A stretch of DNA of 39,037 nt from a virus (taxonomy: Duplodnaviria; Heunggongvirae; Uroviricota; Caudoviricetes): positions 1 to 39,037 of the IMG/VR virus record IMGVR_UViG_2778261428_000004; one strand, 5' to 3'. The translations under genes were made by a program, and so were the position numbers. Each line of letters opens with the position of its first letter. Within the stretch, counting starts at the first letter, position 1. A model generated the notes under the pieces. The model was given only the letters and a program-made list of their open reading frames with translations, made no database searches and had not been told where the DNA came from. This document shows, piece after piece, positions 1-39,037 of the stretch.

Positions 1-39
1 AAAGAAAGCCTTTTATCTTCTACTGATTTAACAACAGCT

Positions 40-1059
40 TTGTTGGCGGCTTTTACTAAAATAACGACTGTAGTTAATGAGATTAACCATTTTTGCCCAT
101 TAGATGTGTCAGTTGTTATCCCTGTTCATAATCGTGAAAAACTTATTCTTAAATGCATTAACTCACTTAATAACCAAACAATTAATAAGGATCGCTTTGA
201 GGTTATTTTTGTCGATGATTGTTCAAGTGACAAAAGCATTGCTGCTATAGAATATAATATAGCACCGGATATTAACTACAGAATTATTCGCCGAGAAATT
301 GGTTCAGGTAACGCTTCAACCCCGCGAAATGAGGGGATAAAAGCAGCAAAAGGGCGTTATATTTTCTTCATGGATTCCGATGACTATATTGACGAAACTC
401 TTCTTGAGAGAGGGGTTCATATTGCTGATAAAAATAATAGTGATATTGTTTACTTCAAAATTGCATCAGATGGTAATCGCGAGGTGCCTATCCGTCCATA
501 CAAGGTGAAAATTGTAGATAAGGCAGATATAACCAAGCATCACCTCTTGCGGTCGTTAACTATTTTCAAATTCTTCCGAAGAAATATGCTTAAAGAGCAT
601 AACATTCTCTTCAACCCAGCTATCACCGTAGCTGAAGATAAAATATTTATGGTTCAATCTCTATCTGTAGCAAACAATATATCTATTCTTGCTGACAAAG
701 ATTATTATCATTTAACATTCCATGGTAATGGTCATTTATCAAGGCAAAAATTTCCTCTTGAAGATAGACACTTCATTCTTAACTCGGTTATTAACACGAT
801 TTACTTTTGCGGAAAAACTAACGAAGAAAAGGCCAAGCTTTACAATGCGTGGCTGGTGATATGCCTTGAAATGATGGAAAAGGTATGTGGTAAAGCAGGT
901 GGCAACGAGCAAAAGAAAAGGATGTTCTTTAACATGCTCTCAACCACTTTCAACATCCGCTCAGATTTAGTAAATCAGGATATGATTTATACCCCTCAGC
1001 GTAAGTTCATCAAACCTTTTTTACAAAATAATTATGAAGGTTTTATAGCTGAAATTTAA
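40..1059 (+). CDS. Family 2 glycosyltransferase (GT-A fold); start uncertain (TTG at 40/43 or GTG at 106)
   Basis: N-terminal VSVVIPVHN...FEVIFVDDCSSD and downstream MDSDDY motifs are typical of GT2 enzymes. The gene is markedly AT-rich. Its stop lies 46 bp from the tailspike stop. Confidence 0.7.
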   Translation: MLAAFTKITTVVNEINHFCPLDVSVVIPVHNREKLILKCINSLNNQTINKDRFEVIFVDDCSSDKSIAAIEYNIAPDINYRIIRREIGSGNASTPRNEGIKAAKGRYIFFMDSDDYIDETLLERGVHIADKNNSDIVYFKIASDGNREVPIRPYKVKIVDKADITKHHLLRSLTIFKFFRRNMLKEHNILFNPAITVAEDKIFMVQSLSVANNISILADKDYYHLTFHGNGHLSRQKFPLEDRHFILNSVINTIYFCGKTNEEKAKLYNAWLVICLEMMEKVCGKAGGNEQKKRMFFNMLSTTFNIRSDLVNQDMIYTPQRKFIKPFLQNNYEGFIAEI

Positions 1060-1064
1060 AACAT

Positions 1065-1085
1065 TGCCCAGCATGTAGCTGGGCA
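1065..1085. terminator. Bidirectional stem-loop between converging glycosyltransferase and tailspike genes
   Basis: Perfect 8-bp stem TGCCCAGC / GCTGGGCA with 5-nt loop in the 46-bp gap between two convergent stop codons. Confidence 0.5.
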
Positions 1086-1105
1086 TACATTAAAAGTACC
1101 ACATA

Positions 1106-3751
1106 TCAACCATTTAGTGTTAACTTTAATAATTTTTCCAGATTATTAATCTTTGATGTGATATTGGCAATATCCTGCTCATGGTGATGATATAATGCGC
1201 TCATTGCCAGAAACATTAACTCGTCATAGCGCACTGATAATTTTCTTCCTGATTCCACAATTAACCTTACTTCACCAGTTTCATACTCTTCTTCCTCTGT
1301 GATTTCATCATACTGACCAGACTCTTCATCAATTAAAATTTTTCTGGTCACATTTCTTGTTGCATAGACTTTCTCATACTCATCATCCCACTCTTCATAG
1401 CAAAGAACCCCATAAGAAAATGCATCAAGCCCCTCAGATTCAAAGATGGATTGTATATCTTGCGCAATTACACCGATATGCTCACGCGCTGACAAGCCTT
1501 TTTCTTTTACAGCATCCTTCATTCTGAATTTTTTTATCAGCGGGTAAATAGCCATTCCAACCCGTAGTTCTGCATCAGATAATGAAGCTTCATCCTGCTT
1601 GTAATTTCTGTCGCTGGTTACAATGGGGCTATTATTTATATACAGGTTTCTGACAGTATTCGACTGTGTACCAATATCATAAAGATTTGAACCTGATGGT
1701 CGAAAATGACCTAATTCTGTTAATACCCATCTGTCACGCAAGCCGTCAATCTCTCCCATGGTTCCAAAGTAGAAAGCAACCGGGATATTGTCTCCGGAAG
1801 GATTACCTCTTGTGACGCATTTAATGTGTGCGCATTGCACAGCCTTACTACCTGTATCACCGGCCCATACATGAGTACCCAATACATCCCCTGTCTGCAG
1901 AGCTCCAAAATTATCAGTTGATACAACACCAGAGCGAGACTTATACATTATTGCTCTTGGTCCTTCTGCGGTGTCTGACTGATGCCGGGAAACCCATGAG
2001 TTGCTCATCCCTTCCGTGCCGTTTGAAGCTAACTGCATTCCACCAGTAATTCCGCCATCAAGAAACAATATAGGGTTATCCCGGTTAGTTTGAATACCCT
2101 TTCTTGTTGGCCAAACTGTCCAGTGAAAAGTATCATTGTATTCCCTTACTCCATATTTGAACTCCGGGGAGCCAGAACTATGAAGACCAGTATTACTGGA
2201 TACAGAACGGCTTGCTTTGCTTTGCACTACCGAACCAGACCTGCCTATATCAAACAGATATACATTTTTCCCGTTCTCAGCAACTCCTTTATATGTGCAT
2301 ATTCCCAGCGTTAAAACATACCCACTCTCCGTTCTAATTACTGTTAGGGACTCAGGCTCTTTATAAACAGGAGTTCCTGTACTGTCAGATTTTGCTTCAT
2401 CATCACCAACAGTTGAAATATCTACTCGCTCAATAAACCTGCCTGTTAAGTCAAATACGTAAATATAATTAGTCATGCCAACATACGTATGTGACTCAAG
2501 TATGTAAATGTATGCCCCATCGCAAGCAATTGATTGGGTAAATGCTTCTTGTGATGGTTTTTGATAGCTAAACTCAACTAAATAATCATCACTATAATCA
2601 GTTTTATGAGATCTGTTATTCCACATGCTGACTATGTCGAAAACACGAACCGTGCAGGTAATTCCATCCGATGAAATTTTCTTGGCAAGTAGATAGTTTT
2701 CACAACTTGATACAGTTGGAGTAGAGCTTGCGCTCATTCCATCATAGGGGAACAACTTCCAGGTGATAAAACCTTCAGATACCCCGTTGGTTGTCCCTGT
2801 GTAACTCAATATATTTTCCATCGAAATACATTGATTGGCGGCATCGGTTCCATAAGGCTTCGATGTCCACAGCACGACAGTACCATCAGGATTATGATGC
2901 AATCCAAGCCCCTGATGCCCAAGTTCAGTAGAACGGGTTCTGTCGTATCTTCCTAGTTCACCAGAATTCGTCACGTCAAAGGCATTAATGCAATAACCGT
3001 ATGCTGTGGTAGATGATAAAGTAAAAATCTTGTCGTTAATTTCATCATAACAACACCCCTGAATGACCGCATATAAACCACCCGCACCTTCAGTTCTGCG
3101 CAACGTGTGTCTGGTGTTATATACTTTTGGCATTCCGGAAAATATCAATGGCTCTCTTTTATCTCTTAATTTAAGATCACCAATCGCAATTCGTTTACTG
3201 CCATCACGAATAAAAGAACCATTTATATAGCTATTTTCAATAAAACTTTTAGTAACAAAAAATGCTCTTCCACTTAAATCAATAACCCTATTTTTTATAT
3301 CCATTTCCAACGCGACAAATGCTTCAGTATCATCGCTAATCCCATCCCCCTTAGCTCCAAAATAAAGAGGAGACATATTTAGCATATCATTTGATAATAC
3401 TTTTTGTTTAAACTGATCCGGGTCGTACTTCAACACATTCGGAAAATAAAACTGCTGCGAACCATACGCATCATATACAGCCATAGAATGGCCTTGCACA
3501 GTTACGAATTTGGCAATCTGTCCGTTATATACCGGATACCCGCCAGCGTTAATGATGATTGGCTGTGCAACAGGAACGTGAGAACCGTCTTCATTCTCTA
3601 CATAAACCTGAATCTGGTTTTCAGGATTTACCGGGTCAGTGTCAATTTTTCCGATATAAATTTTGCCATTGGCAACCGCTTTAAAAGAACGCGCCATAGT
3701 GAAGAGTTGCGAAGGCATGCTTACCACAACATTTGCGGTGATATCTGACAT
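1106..3751 (-). CDS. Tailspike: P22-type N-terminal head-binding domain, divergent central receptor-binding/depolymerase-like domain, C-terminal intramolecular chaperone (peptidase S74-like) domain
   Basis: Start taken at internal ATG 3751 ([11 protein letters not shown]...) with GGAG 7 nt upstream. The first ~115 aa closely match P22 gp9 as recalled. The C-terminal ~130 aa resemble the autocleaving chaperone domain of endosialidase/T5 L-shaped fibre proteins. [14 protein letters not shown] is a beta-helix-type motif. Confidence 0.85.
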
Positions 3752-3872
3752 TTCATTGCTCCAGACGAATGATATGATGCAACCATGATGTGATTGCATA
3801 CCGAAATGGTACTATTGAGTATTTATCCAGTAGGTTACGATGCCATTCCACCCAACTGGTGAGGCATCAAGG
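3752..3872. promoter_or_regulatory. Divergent intergenic region between tailspike and mnt starts; candidate Pmnt / remnant Pant-operator region
   Basis: 121-bp gap between divergent start codons. By analogy with P22 immI this would hold the mnt promoter and Mnt operator, but I could not identify the operator with certainty. Confidence 0.3.
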
Positions 3873-4139
3873 ATGTACAGCAAATACGATGAGGCGCAGT
3901 TTCACTTGAGACTTCCGCATGAACTCCACGCGAAAATTAAGCAGCGTGCGAAGATGAATAACAGATCGCTGAACTCAGAGATAATTGCAGCGATTGAAGA
4001 ATCGTTGGCTAAACAAAGCTCTGCATCCGTTTACATTGATGATGCAGAGCGTATGGCAGAACAACAATCTGATATGGTTAAGAAAATGGTATTTGAAACG
4101 CTTAAGACCATGTATAGCAATAATAAAAAGGAAACATAG
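3873..4139 (+). CDS. mnt: Mnt-family ribbon-helix-helix repressor (P22 immI Mnt homolog)
   Basis: Sequence RLPHELHAKIKQRAKMNNRSLNSEII...DDAERMAEQQSDMVKKMVFETLK aligns with P22 Mnt as recalled. Start taken at internal ATG 3873 with AAGG upstream. Confidence 0.8.
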   Translation: MYSKYDEAQFHLRLPHELHAKIKQRAKMNNRSLNSEIIAAIEESLAKQSSASVYIDDAERMAEQQSDMVKKMVFETLKTMYSNNKKET

Positions 4140-4209
4140 AAATCTAGTTTCCGGCTAAAATGGCATTGCCTTCATGCTATCCTGTGAAAAACTAAGGAGA
4201 GTTAACCAT

Positions 4210-4695
4210 ATGAAAAAATCACTGTTAATTATCCCGCTTCTGCTGGTTGGATGCGCAAAAGTAAGTGACTATCAAGCAAGTTGCGAACAACGCTATCCAA
4301 AGCTTAGCGATATGGCTAATTGTCTTGATGCCAGTGTGAAGAACGACTCACGCATGGCATCAGCACCAACACCTAAGCTGTATGTCCTTGCTGCAAAGAT
4401 GCTCGGGCAAGGTGTCGATGAAGGCAAGATAAGTGACGCACAGGCAAGACTTGAGCTTCAGAATCTTTATGTTCAATTACAAAGCCAAGAACAAGCCCAA
4501 CAAATAGCACAAAGCCAAGCATTCCAGCAGGCTTTATTGAATTATCAGGCTGTAAACACAATGCAAGCGATCGAGCAAAAAGCGCGCCAGCCTGTTATAA
4601 CTCAACCTTACCCAACACGCGTTGACACATATACAAACTGCAATTCAGGATTTGGAAACACGGTAACATGCAACAGTAGCAGTAACATCAGATAA
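4210..4695 (+). CDS. Putative lipoprotein of unknown function (signal peptide plus lipobox LVGC), Gln-rich
   Basis: Start at ATG 4210 with AAGGAG 6 nt upstream. MKKSLLIIPLLLVGCAK is a classic SPII signal/lipobox. It occupies the sieA/immI position between gp16 and the tailspike. Confidence 0.65.
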   Translation: MKKSLLIIPLLLVGCAKVSDYQASCEQRYPKLSDMANCLDASVKNDSRMASAPTPKLYVLAAKMLGQGVDEGKISDAQARLELQNLYVQLQSQEQAQQIAQSQAFQQALLNYQAVNTMQAIEQKARQPVITQPYPTRVDTYTNCNSGFGNTVTCNSSSNIR

Positions 4696-4785: not shown

Positions 4786-6783
4786 CTATTCTGACAATGC
4801 ATCAGACTTAGCCCCCTGCGTCATGGCGTTAATGGCCTTTTGTGCCTGCTGCATGGCTTTCTCGAACGCTGTTGATCCGCGTGGGGTGTTTGCCATTCGG
4901 AGCATTGCATTTCTGAATGGCTCGCTCTCATAGGCGCGAGTAAGAAGTCCGTAGCTTACCGCTGCGCCAGTTGTCGCAGGGTTCATTGCTGTCCCATATC
5001 CGATAATGAACGGGATGGTTTGCTGCCCTGTTGGTGTTGTTACTGCCGCTTTTGCAGCCTGCTGCGTGGATTGCAGGTAGTTTTTCAATCCTTTCAGATA
5101 AGCGGCTTCCTGACCTTTAAATGTGATGCCAGTCTGGTTTTGCAGGATGTTAAGCTGCCGAAGGAACTGGTCAGGGGAACCACCTGATTTCTCCATCGCC
5201 TTTCCAATGATGCCATTGCGCATTTGCGCCCTGCCAACACGACCAACTGAGTTATACAGAGTCTTAATTTCCGATTTGTTCTTGCTGAATAGCATGTTGT
5301 TGACAACTTCCGGCGTCAGGTCGCCTTTCATGAGAACATTCTTCAGCCTGGTATTCTTTAGTTTCGCCGCTTCGTCAGCGTAGACGGCATTGGCCTGCTG
5401 ATATTTACGAAGAGTATCGTTGCCAAGATTCTGACCAATGGCACCATTGATATCGTCGGTCATCGCCTTGTAAACACGTTGAATGGCGGCATCGGAACGG
5501 TTTGGTAACACTGGTCGCTCCCCCTTCACGTCCATTCTGAACTGGCTGCGCAGATCGCTTAATTGCTTCAAATCCAGATTAACCGGACCATCAGGGCCAG
5601 CATTGCGAACAAGCTCATCACGATATGACTGAAGTTTTGAAATTGTCTCGTTATCAGCTACCTTACCAAGCTTCTGCAGATTAGATATTTCTGTATCAAT
5701 CTGCTGAATTGCTCGCGCAGGCTGAATGTTTACTCCAGCCATAGCATTCTGAACCTGCTCCAGTCGATTACCGGCGGCACGACGAATTCCTGATGTTTTC
5801 GCTTTAAGGCTGTCAATAACAACCGCTGGATCATACTCACCGAATTTATCGGCAAATCTCTGCACCAACTGGCTTCTCGCTTCCTGTTGCGTTGCTCTCA
5901 TTCCGCTTGTGCCAGCCAGAGGGATATTTTCTGCTGTAGTCTGCGCCATTTTTCCGACGCGGGAAGTGGGTTGTAACAGGTCTGTGGTGTGCAGAGGAAC
6001 TCCTTCACGCTCTGCAAATCTGATAGCCTGCTGCGCTTCTGGCGCAATAGCACCACGAACGCCACGATAAGCAGCACCTAATCCACGCCCGGCAGCGTTA
6101 ATAGCAGCGCCAGCAAGTACACCAACGCCTAAATCGGTGGCGAGTGCTTCCGCATCATCTTTCGCACTATTTGCAGCAAGTGATCCAACTGCGTTTTCTG
6201 CTAGAAGGCGAGTTGCCCCCTGAGCAATTCGACCAGCAAGTGTTGGTGCCTGTACCGCCGCTCTCTCAACGCCAGCAGGAGTGAGGTAAGGCAATGCTTC
6301 AGCAAATACCTTTCCCTCTGTCGTTTGTGGAGTCAGCGCACCTTGCTGAAGGCCAAAGTCCTGCTCTAATCCCTGCGTTGTTACTCGTGGTGCTGGTTGA
6401 TATGTACCATCGCCAATACCGAGTTTACCGCCAGCCCAAGCCGCCGCGCTTGTTACAGCATCGGCAACTGATGCAGGTATGTTTGCCACGTTCACGCCAG
6501 CCTGCACCATTCCGCGACCAGTCTCTTTTACTGCTTCGCCAAGATCAGACATAAATCCACTTTGCTGTGGTTGTTGCTGTGCTACTGGTTGCTGTGTCTC
6601 CACTGACTGCACAAATGGCAATGGATAGGCAGCATAGAAAGCTTGCTTAGCCTGCTCTGCATTTTCTCCGGCTTGCGGGGCCACGACTTCATTGAAGTAT
6701 TGCTCCTGAGCCTGCGCTTTTTGTTCTGGTGCTAACGCCTGATACTGTGGAGAGGCGATAACATCTTTCCATGCTTTAGCCAT
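4786..6783 (-). CDS. Ejection (internal virion) protein, P22 gp16-like
   Basis: Position last in the 7-20-16 ejection protein series; long Ala/Gly/Gln-rich protein. Assigned by synteny with P22. Confidence 0.7.
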   Translation of the reverse strand: MAKAWKDVIASPQYQALAPEQKAQAQEQYFNEVVAPQAGENAEQAKQAFYAAYPLPFVQSVETQQPVAQQQPQQSGFMSDLGEAVKETGRGMVQAGVNVANIPASVADAVTSAAAWAGGKLGIGDGTYQPAPRVTTQGLEQDFGLQQGALTPQTTEGKVFAEALPYLTPAGVERAAVQAPTLAGRIAQGATRLLAENAVGSLAANSAKDDAEALATDLGVGVLAGAAINAAGRGLGAAYRGVRGAIAPEAQQAIRFAEREGVPLHTTDLLQPTSRVGKMAQTTAENIPLAGTSGMRATQQEARSQLVQRFADKFGEYDPAVVIDSLKAKTSGIRRAAGNRLEQVQNAMAGVNIQPARAIQQIDTEISNLQKLGKVADNETISKLQSYRDELVRNAGPDGPVNLDLKQLSDLRSQFRMDVKGERPVLPNRSDAAIQRVYKAMTDDINGAIGQNLGNDTLRKYQQANAVYADEAAKLKNTRLKNVLMKGDLTPEVVNNMLFSKNKSEIKTLYNSVGRVGRAQMRNGIIGKAMEKSGGSPDQFLRQLNILQNQTGITFKGQEAAYLKGLKNYLQSTQQAAKAAVTTPTGQQTIPFIIGYGTAMNPATTGAAVSYGLLTRAYESEPFRNAMLRMANTPRGSTAFEKAMQQAQKAINAMTQGAKSDALSE

Positions 6784-36153: not shown

Positions 36154-36363
36154 ATGGCTATTGCCGCAAGTTACACCATGCATCTCTATTGTGATTGTCG
36201 CCAGTGTACGGAAGGTGTATATCCAGTGCCAGACTTCGGTGAGTATATCGGTACGTCATGGTCTGGTTGTGCAAAAGAGGCCCGTAAAGACGGGTGGCGA
36301 ATAAGCAAAGACAAAACACGTACTTTTGCGCCCGGGCATAAAGTTTTGAGGATTAACACATGA
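36154..36363 (+). CDS. Hypothetical Cys-rich small protein (69 aa)
   Basis: AAAGGAG SD before ATG 36154; CDCRQC...C pattern. Confidence 0.45.
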   Translation: MAIAASYTMHLYCDCRQCTEGVYPVPDFGEYIGTSWSGCAKEARKDGWRISKDKTRTFAPGHKVLRINT

Positions 36364-37133
36364 CCACTATTACCAAAGAACGTATTGAATTGTTCATTAA
36401 AAATCCGCTTGAAAACGGGCTTACTCGTGGCGAACAAATGGAACTGGCACGAATTGCACTGGCATCACTGGAACGCGAACTGATTCGCCACGAGCATGCC
36501 AAATGGTCTGACTCCACATTTGGCTGCGTTGGCCCCATTGGTCCACTGAAACACCTCTCAAAAGAGGCTCTGGAAGCCGCAGCCGAACCAGACGATCTCA
36601 GCGAGTGGGCTGATATGCATTTCCTGTTGTGGGATGCACAGCGCCGTGCTGGCATCAGCGATGCTGAAATTACCGCTGCTATGGAAGATAAATTGAAGAT
36701 CAACATGGAGCGCCAGTGGCCTGAACCAAAAGATGGTGAGCCTCGCTTGCACATTAAAGAACCCGGCAACTCTCCGGTAATTCCGGATGGTTTATCCACG
36801 GTATGCGCTGAGGCTTATCAGGTTGTAGGAGTTATGGCAGATGCGCTTGGTGTATTCGGTGATGCAGCAGTACAGAAAGTTCTGGATAACCTGTCACAGC
36901 AAAAACTTGTTCACAGAGATGTGCTGCCGTTCTCGCTTCCGGTAACTCCGGATGGTTGGATAAGCTGTAGTGATCGAATGCCGAACGACGCGCAGTGGTG
37001 CGTAGTGAACACAGAATACGGGTATTACGTGCAATGCTGGTCTGAAGGTCAAGGGTGGCTTGGTGATGATATCAGCATCCCTAAATGCGATGTAATCAAT
37101 TGGATGCCTCTACCAGAACCGCCGCAGGGGTGA
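36360..37133 (+). CDS. DUF550 (MazG-like NTP pyrophosphohydrolase-like) plus DUF551 two-domain protein
   Basis: The C-terminal WISCSDRMPND...INWMPLPEPP resembles the standalone DUF551 gene at 19060-19275. Confidence 0.55.
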   Translation: MTTITKERIELFIKNPLENGLTRGEQMELARIALASLERELIRHEHAKWSDSTFGCVGPIGPLKHLSKEALEAAAEPDDLSEWADMHFLLWDAQRRAGISDAEITAAMEDKLKINMERQWPEPKDGEPRLHIKEPGNSPVIPDGLSTVCAEAYQVVGVMADALGVFGDAAVQKVLDNLSQQKLVHRDVLPFSLPVTPDGWISCSDRMPNDAQWCVVNTEYGYYVQCWSEGQGWLGDDISIPKCDVINWMPLPEPPQG

Positions 37134-37767: not shown

Positions 37768-37986
37768 ATGTACTTAACACTTCAGGAGTGGAACGCACGC
37801 CAGCGGCGCCCAAGAAGCCTTGAAACAGTTCGTCGATGGGTACGCGAGTGCAGGATATTCCCTCCTCCGGTTAAGGATGGAAGAGAGTATCTGTTCCACG
37901 AATCAGCGGTAAAGGTTGACTTAAATCGACCAGTAACAGGTAGCCTTTTGAAGAGGATCAGAAATGGGAAGAAGGCGAAGTCATGA
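37768..37986 (+). CDS. xis: Excisionase
   Basis: 72 aa, MYLTLQEWNARQRRPRSLETVRRWVRECRIFPPPVKDGREYLF..., essentially lambda Xis as recalled. Confidence 0.95.
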   Translation: MYLTLQEWNARQRRPRSLETVRRWVRECRIFPPPVKDGREYLFHESAVKVDLNRPVTGSLLKRIRNGKKAKS

Positions 37987-39037
37987 GCGCCGGGATTTAC
38001 CTCCTAACCTTTATATAAGAAACAATGGATATTACTGCTACAGGGACCCAAGGACGGGTAAAGAGTTTGGATTAGGCCGAGACAGGAGGATAGCAATCAC
38101 TGAAGCTATACAGGCCAACATTGAGTTACTCTCAGACAGCGGACGCAAATCACTGATAGACAGAATTAAAGGCGGTGACGCAATCACTCTTCATGTGTGG
38201 CTTGACCGATATGAAAGAATCCTCACCGAAAGGGGGATCAGGCCGAAAACTCTACTCGACTACGCCAGCAAAATCAGGGCAATCCGAAGAAAATTGCCGG
38301 ACAAACCGCTCACTGACATATCAACGAAAGAAGTGGCAGCAATGCTAAACACCTACGTAGCAGAAGGTAAAGCAGCTTCCGCAAAATTAATCAGGTCAAC
38401 CCTTGTTGACGTTTTTCGTGAAGCAATAGCCGAGGGGCATGTGGCAACGAATCCGGTAACAGCAACCCGTACAGCAAAGTCAGAAGTAAGGCGCTCAAGG
38501 CTGACAGCTAATGAGTATGTCGAGATTTACCATGCAGCCGAACCTCTCCCTATCTGGCTAAGGCTGGCGATGGATTTGGCCGTCGTTACAGGGCAGAGAG
38601 TCGGCGATTTGTGCAGAATGAAATGGTCAGACATAAACGACAACCATCTTCACATTGAACAGAGTAAAACAGGGGCTAAACTCGCCATTCCGCTAATGCT
38701 AACGATTGACGCGCTCAATATCTCATTGGCTGATACACTACAGAAATGCAGGGATGCCAGCAGCAGTGAAACTATAATCGCATCAAAGCATCACGATCCG
38801 CTTTCCCCGAAAACAGTATCAAAGTATTTTACAAAGGCGAGAAATGCATCTGGACTCTCATTTGATGGAAACCCGCCAACATTCCATGAACTGCGTAGCC
38901 TGTCAGCGAGGCTATACCGGAACCAGATTGGCGATAAGTTTGCTCAACGTCTTCTCGGGCATAAATCAGATTCAATGGCGGCGCGGTATAGGGACAGCCG
39001 TGGACGGGAATGGGACAAAATTGAAATCGACAAATGA
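37964..39037 (+). CDS. int: Tyrosine integrase, lambda Int-like
   Basis: 357 aa; MGRRRSHERRDLPPNLYIRNNGYYCYRDPRTGKEFGLGRDRRIAITEAIQAN... and C-terminal ...HELRSLSARLY...LLGHKSD...EWDKIEI match lambda Int as recalled; overlaps the xis end. Confidence 0.95.
   Translation: MGRRRSHERRDLPPNLYIRNNGYYCYRDPRTGKEFGLGRDRRIAITEAIQANIELLSDSGRKSLIDRIKGGDAITLHVWLDRYERILTERGIRPKTLLDYASKIRAIRRKLPDKPLTDISTKEVAAMLNTYVAEGKAASAKLIRSTLVDVFREAIAEGHVATNPVTATRTAKSEVRRSRLTANEYVEIYHAAEPLPIWLRLAMDLAVVTGQRVGDLCRMKWSDINDNHLHIEQSKTGAKLAIPLMLTIDALNISLADTLQKCRDASSSETIIASKHHDPLSPKTVSKYFTKARNASGLSFDGNPPTFHELRSLSARLYRNQIGDKFAQRLLGHKSDSMAARYRDSRGREWDKIEIDK

Follow-up and report, generated by a model that had tools for sequence, protein, structure and literature searches.

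The IMG/VR virus record IMGVR_UViG_2778261428_000004 (Caudoviricetes), analysed over its full length of 39,037 nucleotides (nt) and called the window below, opens with the 3′ part of a gene for a family 2 glycosyltransferase (GT2; positions 1..1059, plus strand), which converges on a tailspike gene (1106..3751, minus strand). Frame 1 is open from the first base and stop-free over positions 1-1056 (352 codons), with the TAA stop codon of GT2 at 1057-1059, and homologues of ~430-440 amino acids (aa) have ~80 more N-terminal residues than these 352 codons, so the gene is truncated at its 5′ end by the window edge. The start at position 40 given in a preliminary description of this DNA was an artefact, since TTG 40 is merely the first start-like codon encountered by the program that listed the open reading frames (ORFs). 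Neither TTG at 40/43 nor the GTG chosen by RefSeq was retained as the primary start, because neither has a visible ribosome-binding site and the homologues extend ~80 residues further N-terminally; alleles that are in frame run through from an upstream ATG, which counts against both. Left of the window lie the leader of the gene, a CCAG repeat and ~21 further codons. The assignment of the product to GT2 held up: residues 37-197 matched the Pfam model Glycos_transf_2 (PF00535) with 110.7 bits against a gathering cut-off of 23.3 (E 9.3e-32), placing it among inverting enzymes of the GT-A fold.

The GC content of the gene is 35.0%, compared with 47.5% for the window, and ranks second lowest among 380 equal-sized segments. 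The gene is thus as AT-rich as described earlier; its immediate neighbour is not GC-normal, as the tailspike gene has a GC content of 40.2% and a third-position value (GC3) of 0.34, close to the 0.32 of GT2, so that the AT-rich island comprises the gene pair and not GT2 alone. The GT2 stop codon and that of the tailspike gene (1106-1108) are separated by exactly 46 bp, as had been reported. This convergent gap contains a GC-rich hairpin (1065..1085, not assigned to a strand; found by folding and by a consensus terminator scan) with an 8-bp stem including 6 G-C pairs, a 5-nt loop, a folding free energy of -16 kcal/mol and a z score of -3.5 for the plus-strand fold. The terminator scan called it on the minus strand only, with the tail ATGTTTTAAA, and the plus strand lacks a T tail. 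A bidirectional terminator was rejected on the grounds that the T-rich tail occurs on the minus strand only; of the stem-loop that both genes had been said to share, the hairpin exists, and judged by its sequence it is better regarded as a terminator for the tailspike gene than for GT2.

Searched by megablast, positions 1-1105 had no match among 50,697 phage records, so that this set contains no sequenced reference phage with this allele, and matched four complete Escherichia coli chromosomes, those of strain C and GMF054 (99.9% identity) and those of CUVM3 and CPww7 (89%). Strain C has tRNA-Arg followed by intS, ~0.5 kb of AT-rich DNA, GT2 and the convergent tailspike gene; in CUVM3 the GT2 variant lies within an unbroken run of P22-like genes, and in GMF054 it is the final prophage gene ahead of the host gene torT. 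GT2 is therefore prophage cargo, as first proposed from its position, now seen between intS and the tailspike in strain C and within contiguous phage genes in CUVM3. The DNA to the left of GT2, which could be inspected in the complete genomes, contained no chromosomal polysaccharide cluster. Neither gtrA nor gtrC nor an acyltransferase gene was found upstream of GT2 in strain C, CUVM3 and GMF054, which extends to complete genomes the earlier observation that GT2 has no flippase or acyltransferase partner within the window. At the opposite end of the window, positions 37964-39037 encode a 357-aa lambda-type integrase (Arm-DNA-binding and Phage_integrase domains), the stop codon of which is the last base of the window; the window thus resembles a predicted prophage from which both ends were trimmed, and it includes no attachment site.

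GT2 and the tailspike gene belong together as a two-gene module. Strain C, GMF054 and CUVM3 share the block formed by both (positions 1-3765) at 95-99% identity and diverge outside it, and the 881-aa neighbour gene is present in every contig carrying GT2. The tie extends beyond E. coli: residues 111-888 of the tailspike are 70% identical to an 885-aa protein in a siphovirus-type prophage of Leclercia sp. W6, where a 63%-identical GT2 converges on the gene of this receptor protein. The receptor domain (57-72% identity) together with a convergent GT2 of the family was also found in a prophage of a Leclercia metagenome-assembled genome (MAG) and in a lambda-like prophage (L038). The link between GT2 and the tailspike drawn in the preliminary description is thus borne out both by a block conserved despite differing flanks and by the likewise convergent Leclercia pair. 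The temperate phages with this receptor domain seen here (W6, the Leclercia MAG, L038) always had the convergent GT2, and three lytic phages (SU10-like, a large myovirus and T7-like) had the receptor domain without any GT2, a distribution that fits a gene that matters only in lysogeny. The version in the Leclercia MAG prophage has 797 aa, with an extra N-terminal region of 440 aa (L042 6982-9375).

The tailspike reads 881 aa from MSDITANV and matched Head_binding (E 8.9e-67) and Peptidase_S74 (E 7.4e-8). The mechanically called ORF begins at ATG 3799; the true start is almost certainly the Met of MSDITANV at 3751, because annotation of related contigs gives the neighbour gene 881 aa and residue 17 is the first of the head-binding domain. 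This P22-type head-binding domain (3413..3751, minus strand; PF09008, residues 17-129) is 83-91% identical to the N-termini of the Sf6, HK620 and Sf101 tailspikes and anchors the protein to a P22-like virion. At the C-terminus, a Peptidase_S74 intramolecular chaperone domain (1430..1615, minus strand; PF13884, residues 729-790) matched the chaperone domains of an endosialidase and of the T5 L-shaped fibre in the PDB. The central region has no solved sequence relative in the PDB. Its AlphaFold model showed a beta-propeller core (2213..3070, minus strand; predicted local distance difference test score (pLDDT) ~85-93) of the phi11 Gp45 type as judged by Foldseek: the top nine matches were receptor-binding proteins of the Staphylococcus aureus phages phi11, 80alpha and P68 and that of NF5 (E 5e-12 to 2e-9), followed by generic propellers from E 5e-7. 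For the corresponding Pfam model PF21311, the tailspike of the window scored 16.9 bits (E 0.005), below the cut-off of 23.7, and its 78%-identical relative P0127 scored 32.3 bits. The phi11 protein Gp45 binds ribitol-phosphate teichoic acid decorated with N-acetylglucosamine (PMC4901313).

The enzyme itself points to the same polymer class. According to alignment with full-length homologues and the AlphaFold model of the 434-aa homologue P0003, positions 1..105 (plus strand) encode the last strand and the linker helix of a small N-terminal alpha/beta domain, approximately residues 83-117 of P0003, and are followed by the GT-A catalytic and helical subdomain of the TarS/TarP/RmlT type (106..1056, plus strand; phmmer and Foldseek). 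A DSDD metal/nucleotide motif (residues 125-128, nt 373-384) does not vary among 35 homologues and coincides in the alignment with the DSDD of TarS and TarP. The putative catalytic Glu-Asp pair (nt 634-639) falls within AEDK (residues 211-214), which aligned to "aed" in TarS and TarP, and is likewise invariant (E294/D295 in alignment A1); in RmlT, TarS and TarP this pair is crucial for catalysis (PMC11697029). The best phmmer matches to PDB sequences were TarS (5TZE, E 5e-38), TarP (6H1J, E 3.3e-32) and RmlT (E 1.5e-19), and with the P0003 model the top 45 Foldseek matches were all TarS, TarP or RmlT, aligned over ~325 columns with target-normalised template modelling (TM) scores of 0.79-0.85. 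These enzymes glycosylate polyribitol-phosphate wall teichoic acid while it is still in the cytoplasm, ahead of its export by an ABC transporter (PMC11697029). Their C-terminal oligomerisation domain is absent here: the GT2 protein stops after the helical subdomain, and its accessory domain, an alpha/beta domain of ~110 aa, is N-terminal. In homologues from Campylobacter coli and Psychrobacter (P0024 and P0061, 49% identical), the domain order is permuted and the accessory domain stands at the C-terminus. No membrane segment was detected (highest Kyte-Doolittle 19-residue window 1.19), no NCBIfam model scored above its own cut-off, and the best PHROGs match was phrog_22088 (E 2.8e-125), held there as a family of unknown function. 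From these matches and the structural model, GT2 is likely a cytoplasmic polymer-decorating enzyme of the TarS/TarP type.

In complete genomes with the same module, the start codon of GT2 lies ~410 bp upstream of the window edge. There, in strain C and GMF054, an ATG preceded by a GAGG ribosome-binding site opens a 53-codon leader, MKTDITAISENIVEFFEKTTLRDHIKKTWLYNENCFVIDFEYKGVKFALDFTA, which runs into a perfect (CCAG)n tract, translated as (SQPA)n; strain C has 46 units of it and GMF054 69, between identical flanks, and it ends ~70 nt before base 1 of the window. Reconstruction of the reading frame showed that the leader fuses to GT2 only at n mod 3 = 2: a gene rebuilt with n = 47 gives a single ORF of 490 aa and one with n = 2 an ORF of 430 aa. 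Strain C and GMF054 are both OFF, the leader ending in a different off-frame in each. An IMG/VR contig (n = 4) and a contig from a human-gut metagenome (n = 10) supply two further copies of this allele, and these are likewise OFF. The draft contigs with this gene, at least 24 in number and represented by nine places, begin at TTGTAAGCG, 3-4 nt past the repeat, indicating that short-read assemblies break at the CCAG tract; these breaks are probably the reason why GT2 is labelled "partial" in databases. We consider it very likely that an upstream repeat tract sets the frame of GT2 and varies in length, which is read directly in the identical loci and inferred from them for the genome of the window.

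Homologues without the repeat (P0003, P0012) or with 1-2 units (P0011, P0005) indicate, on sequence comparison, the ancestral state of the gene. In the AlphaFold model of P0003 (pLDDT 90.9), the site of the tract is a loop between the strands 45-53 and 62-68 of the small N-terminal domain, where the model makes it plausible that a flexible insert is tolerated. An exact-pattern scan for the junction of leader and repeat in one genome per species gave no match, so that the repeat-bearing form was not seen there outside E. coli, and a homologue search with leader, repeat and GT2 start yielded low-complexity candidates only and nothing useful. As to damaged relatives, the IS3 element of CUVM3 (L002 10365-11868) splits the repeat-free 89% variant after approximately codon 85, and in AST215 the leader of a capsule-locus copy is interrupted by a premature stop (L005 ~6000-6150).

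Length variation of the tract is documented best for a sister allele (leader 90%, protein 55% identical) that resides in P2-like prophages of 28 complete genomes, flanked by the tail sheath gene and by a convergent tail-fibre gene, and in which n ranges from 5 to 66. Twelve of these loci were read directly (n = 7, 7, 10, 15, 20, 21, 34, 35, 35, 45, 60 and 66, with identical flanks), and in all 12 the state followed the frame, the fusion of leader and enzyme (ON) occurring exactly at n mod 3 = 0 (15, 21, 45, 60 and 66). Of 30 prophage copies, 8 are annotated as in frame, near the one-third expected without strong selection. REL606 (7 units), AS19 (10) and the parent E. coli B (35) are OFF and ATCC 11303 (21) is ON. 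Among six drug-selected laboratory descendants of E. coli B, B-ZidR, B-StaR and B-LamR have kept the 35 units and the OFF state, B-DidR and B-RalR have 34 units and are OFF, and B-DolR has 45 and is ON (the counts for RalR, StaR and LamR being inferred from match spans); three of the six thus differ from the parent, as predicted for a hypermutable tract. Both the C-terminal half of the enzyme and the fibre of the P2-like cassette are different from, though weakly related to, the P22-type pair; as they change together, the type of the enzyme tracks the type of the receptor binder. The record NZ_CP029371.1 ("Escherichia coli strain C") has the leader at two places, the P22-type locus and a second copy. 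Its IS1 insertion in the CDP-ribitol synthase gene is the same as in the E. coli B lineage, and the record may be a relative of that lineage and not the classical strain C.

Indications of the acceptor came from the chromosomal relatives of the enzyme and from the hosts. Members of the GT2 family reside in kps capsule loci of two E. coli genomes, of Campylobacter coli and of metagenome contigs, next to genes for a bifunctional CDP-ribitol synthase and a TagF-like polymerase/phosphotransferase. The CDP-ribitol synthase gene was detected in 196 of 5426 complete E. coli genomes, namely in 20 of the 32 that carry the cassette and in 176 of the 5394 others (3%; odds ratio 49, p 8e-22), and the association persisted after obvious clones were collapsed (p ~2e-6). 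On account of the enzyme class, the kps neighbourhood, the host association and the tailspike fold, a ribitol-phosphate capsule exported by an ABC transporter is a likelier acceptor than the O-antigen named in the preliminary description; we give such a capsule about an even chance. The AF16-type capsule locus with a GT2 copy was rejected as an explanation of the prophage hosts, being present in just two genomes. The capsule-locus copies of GT2 (L005, L017 5104-5231) adjoin a fragment annotated as "tail fiber assembly protein", which suggests that the gene moved from a phage to the capsule locus or in the reverse direction. Region 2 of the kps locus of CFSAN061763 encodes a 319-aa protein (L039 12122-13081) with a PF21311 domain (E 2e-15) and the same fold as the tailspike core; this ribitol-phosphate capsule locus is common to E. 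coli B and many hosts of the cassette.

Taken together, the interpretation that we favour, with moderate confidence, is that GT2 is a phase-variable lysogenic-conversion gene of the TarS/TarP/RmlT type that forms a module with the tailspike and the target of which is probably a teichoic-acid-like capsule. GT2 and the convergent tailspike gene form a mobile AT-rich module that would couple a receptor binder to a receptor modifier. Slipped-strand mispairing of the CCAG tract would switch the enzyme ON and OFF at high frequency, making GT2 a mobile contingency locus. When ON, the enzyme would transfer a sugar from a nucleotide-sugar donor to a ribitol-phosphate group 2 capsule polymer in the cytoplasm, before export, the same polymer probably being recognised by the propeller-type tailspike. 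The modification would alter phage adsorption and antigenicity in part of the lysogen population, with the receptor either blocked or created. The suggestion that it protects the lysogen from the same phage type is possible and somewhat doubtful.

Several observations weigh against this interpretation. All copies seen of this exact allele were OFF (n = 4, 10, 46 and 69; chance ~0.2), and the 89% variant of CUVM3 is split by IS3. The OFF state may not be tight: in the n mod 3 = 1 frame, re-initiation from TAA to GTG may give a leaky enzyme. The geometry in that frame is that the leader ends with a TAA two bases ahead of the GTG start of GT2 in RefSeq (L001 11931-11946), and three of the four copies are in it. 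Leader and repeat lie outside the window, so that for this genome both are deduced from the contig breaks and from loci with 99.9% identity. Some of the repeat counts rest on assemblies that may be inaccurate in long repeats, and low counts may reflect collapse of the tract. Confidence in the tailspike model is limited to its core (mean pLDDT 63.8 overall). As to the substrate, 12 of the 32 genomes with the cassette, including GMF054 with this very allele, have no CDP-ribitol synthase gene, an IS1 element disrupts the gene in strain C and the B lineage, and the host association could reflect phage host range and not the substrate of the enzyme.

Those 12 genomes also lend weight to the best-surviving alternative, in which GT2 is a cytoplasmic side-branch transferase for the O-antigen or the core of the lipopolysaccharide (LPS), acting on undecaprenyl-pyrophosphate-linked units or on a ribitol- or glycerol-phosphate O-antigen. 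The tailspike would then be specific for O-antigen, as in most P22-like phages, and phase variation by the repeat would still apply. The head-binding domain, common to the O-antigen-specific tailspikes of Sf6, HK620 and P22, agrees with this, and the weak NCBIfam matches, all below cut-off, were to GT2 enzymes of exopolysaccharide and teichuronic acid synthesis. Against it, the nearest solved relatives over the catalytic and helical region are three polyribitol-phosphate glycosyltransferases, family members stand by CDP-ribitol synthase genes in ABC-transporter capsule loci in three settings, the hosts are strongly associated with ribitol-phosphate loci, and the tailspike core resembles binders of teichoic acid. 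We regard an O-antigen or LPS core acceptor as unlikely.

Less probable still is that GT2 is a decaying remnant without present function and the repeat a runaway microsatellite in a dead gene. All four copies of the allele with a visible repeat are out of frame, the IS3-split CUVM3 copy and the prematurely terminated AST215 copy are disrupted, and ~1/3 of the sister-allele copies are in frame, as under random drift. Against decay stand 352 codons past the repeat that are stop-free and 99.9% identical across strains, invariant catalytic motifs and in-frame copies that yield full-length proteins; moreover, CUVM3 and CPww7 are three repeats apart and both still ON, and GT2 has been kept by its receptor-binding partner across genera and in P22-like, P2-like and lambda-like/siphovirus backbones. 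That GT2 acts like GtrB, loading a sugar onto bactoprenol phosphate for host or unseen phage proteins to flip and attach to the O-antigen in the periplasm, is very improbable. In favour of this reading, GT2 lies where P22-like phages have gtrABC, oac or neuO, and it matched PHROG families labelled "GtrB-like O-antigen conversion" (E 8.6e-32). Against it, GtrB-type enzymes are membrane-anchored and GT2 has no transmembrane segment, no gtrA or gtrC accompanies it in the window or upstream in the complete genomes, the match to the uncharacterised phrog_22088 is far stronger, and its structural neighbours are soluble polymer-modifying enzymes.

Among known systems, the nearest functional parallel to the proposed phase-variable conversion gene is neuO of prophage CUS-3, and the nearest biochemical one is TarP/TarS. 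The polysialic acid O-acetyltransferase NeuO of E. coli K1 is likewise the cargo of a P22-like prophage in the slot between integrase and tailspike, and its gene has been called a mobile contingency locus. In both, a translated and tolerated 5′ coding repeat sets the frame and permits a full-length protein in one of three frames; furthermore, a group 2 capsule is the target of the CUS-3 tailspike, an endosialidase, and an endosialidase chaperone domain matches the S74 region found here. They differ in that NeuO is a left-handed-beta-helix acetyltransferase, its repeat unit has 7 nt compared with the 4 nt of CCAG, and its tract begins two bases past the start codon and not, as in GT2, after codon 53 in a loop of a folded domain; in addition, the GT2 cassette also travels in P2-like and lambda-like prophages and its target is not polysialic acid. 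The copy number of the neuO repeat is 2-93 (PMC3046976), and that of CCAG here 4-69.

With TarP, TarS and RmlT, GT2 shares the GT-A and helical subdomains, the DxD and Glu-Asp motifs, solubility and the best matches in sequence and fold; those enzymes decorate their polymer in the cytoplasm before ABC export, and the GT2 family adjoins CDP-ribitol synthase genes. Like GT2, TarP of S. aureus is prophage-borne. Identity is only ~25-27%, the C-terminal trimerisation or Ig-like domain is replaced by the N-terminal alpha/beta domain, the bacterium is Gram-negative, and a capsule takes the place of wall teichoic acid as presumed acceptor; we know of no repeat switch in tarP or tarS like the one in GT2. 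The receptor-binding proteins of phi11 (Gp45), 80alpha and P68 have a five-bladed propeller platform that, according to the structural model, matches the tailspike core (E 5e-12 to 6e-11), at 14-16% identity and here placed between a P22 head-binding and an S74 chaperone domain.

The gtrABC clusters for O-antigen glucosylation of P22-like and Shigella phages, with which GT2 had been compared in the preliminary description, share with it the slot and the purpose, the modification of a surface glycan by a temperate phage. The analogy does not extend to the mode of action, as GT2 lacks a membrane segment and gtrA/gtrC partners and has its nearest relatives in the cytoplasmic TarS/TarP/RmlT: gtrABC encodes three membrane proteins with periplasmic chemistry, compared with one soluble, cytoplasmic product here. 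The gtr switch relies on DNA methylation and not on repeat slippage. Like the GT2 cassette, gtr operons are horizontally acquired, and in Salmonella they are phase-variable (PMC3688519).

The mode of switching resembles that of the lipooligosaccharide glycosyltransferases of Haemophilus influenzae and Neisseria, in which a 5′ coding tetranucleotide tract shifts the frame. These are chromosomal genes of mucosal pathogens with small genomes, whereas GT2 is phage-borne in E. coli, and the CCAG tracts are several-fold longer than theirs. To our knowledge, repeat-driven switches are rare in E. coli. For H. influenzae LPS, tetranucleotide repeats are the main device of phase variation (PMC2651432).

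Two further genes of the window merit mention. A 173-aa ORF at 4174-4695 (plus strand), with a lipoprotein-type signal (...LLLVGC AK...) and no Pfam match, follows an Arc/Mnt-like repressor gene (3840-4139) in an immI-like region beside the tailspike, and could be a cargo or exclusion gene. In the early region near the integrase, the ORF at 36360-37133 (plus strand) combines a dATP/dGTP pyrophosphohydrolase domain (E 1e-41) with DUF551, a nucleotide-pool enzyme of a type seen in phage counter-defence.

The tetranucleotide repeat has practical consequences: it breaks short-read assemblies, after which annotation calls GT2 "partial" or splits the gene in two, and the CCAG tract is variable in widely used E. 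coli B strains. No earlier account of a glycosyltransferase gated by CCAG repeats, whether in E. coli prophages or in strain B, was found in the literature searched, which left out most subscription journals. We tentatively propose, at slightly less than an even chance, that P22-like, P2-like and lambda-like E. coli phages share a portable module in which a propeller binder resembling phi11 Gp45 is paired with a TarP-like glycosyltransferase that is gated by a 4-nt repeat and acts on ribitol-phosphate capsule. If true, the S. aureus teichoic-acid/phage system would have a Gram-negative counterpart, and E. coli a tetranucleotide contingency locus for which we found no earlier report, present and changing even in laboratory E. 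coli B (e.g., REL606). As the nearest solved relatives of both module genes belong to the S. aureus teichoic-acid system, phages may read and edit the ribitol-phosphate capsules of E. coli in a similar manner, which bears on capsule serotyping, on vaccine antigens and on the choice of therapeutic phages. Repeat-based ON/OFF switches are textbook knowledge for Haemophilus, Neisseria and Campylobacter, with neuO of CUS-3 as the standard example in E. coli; a second, unrelated and far more mobile E. coli switch would identify phages as vehicles by which contingency loci for surface glycans spread among enterobacteria.

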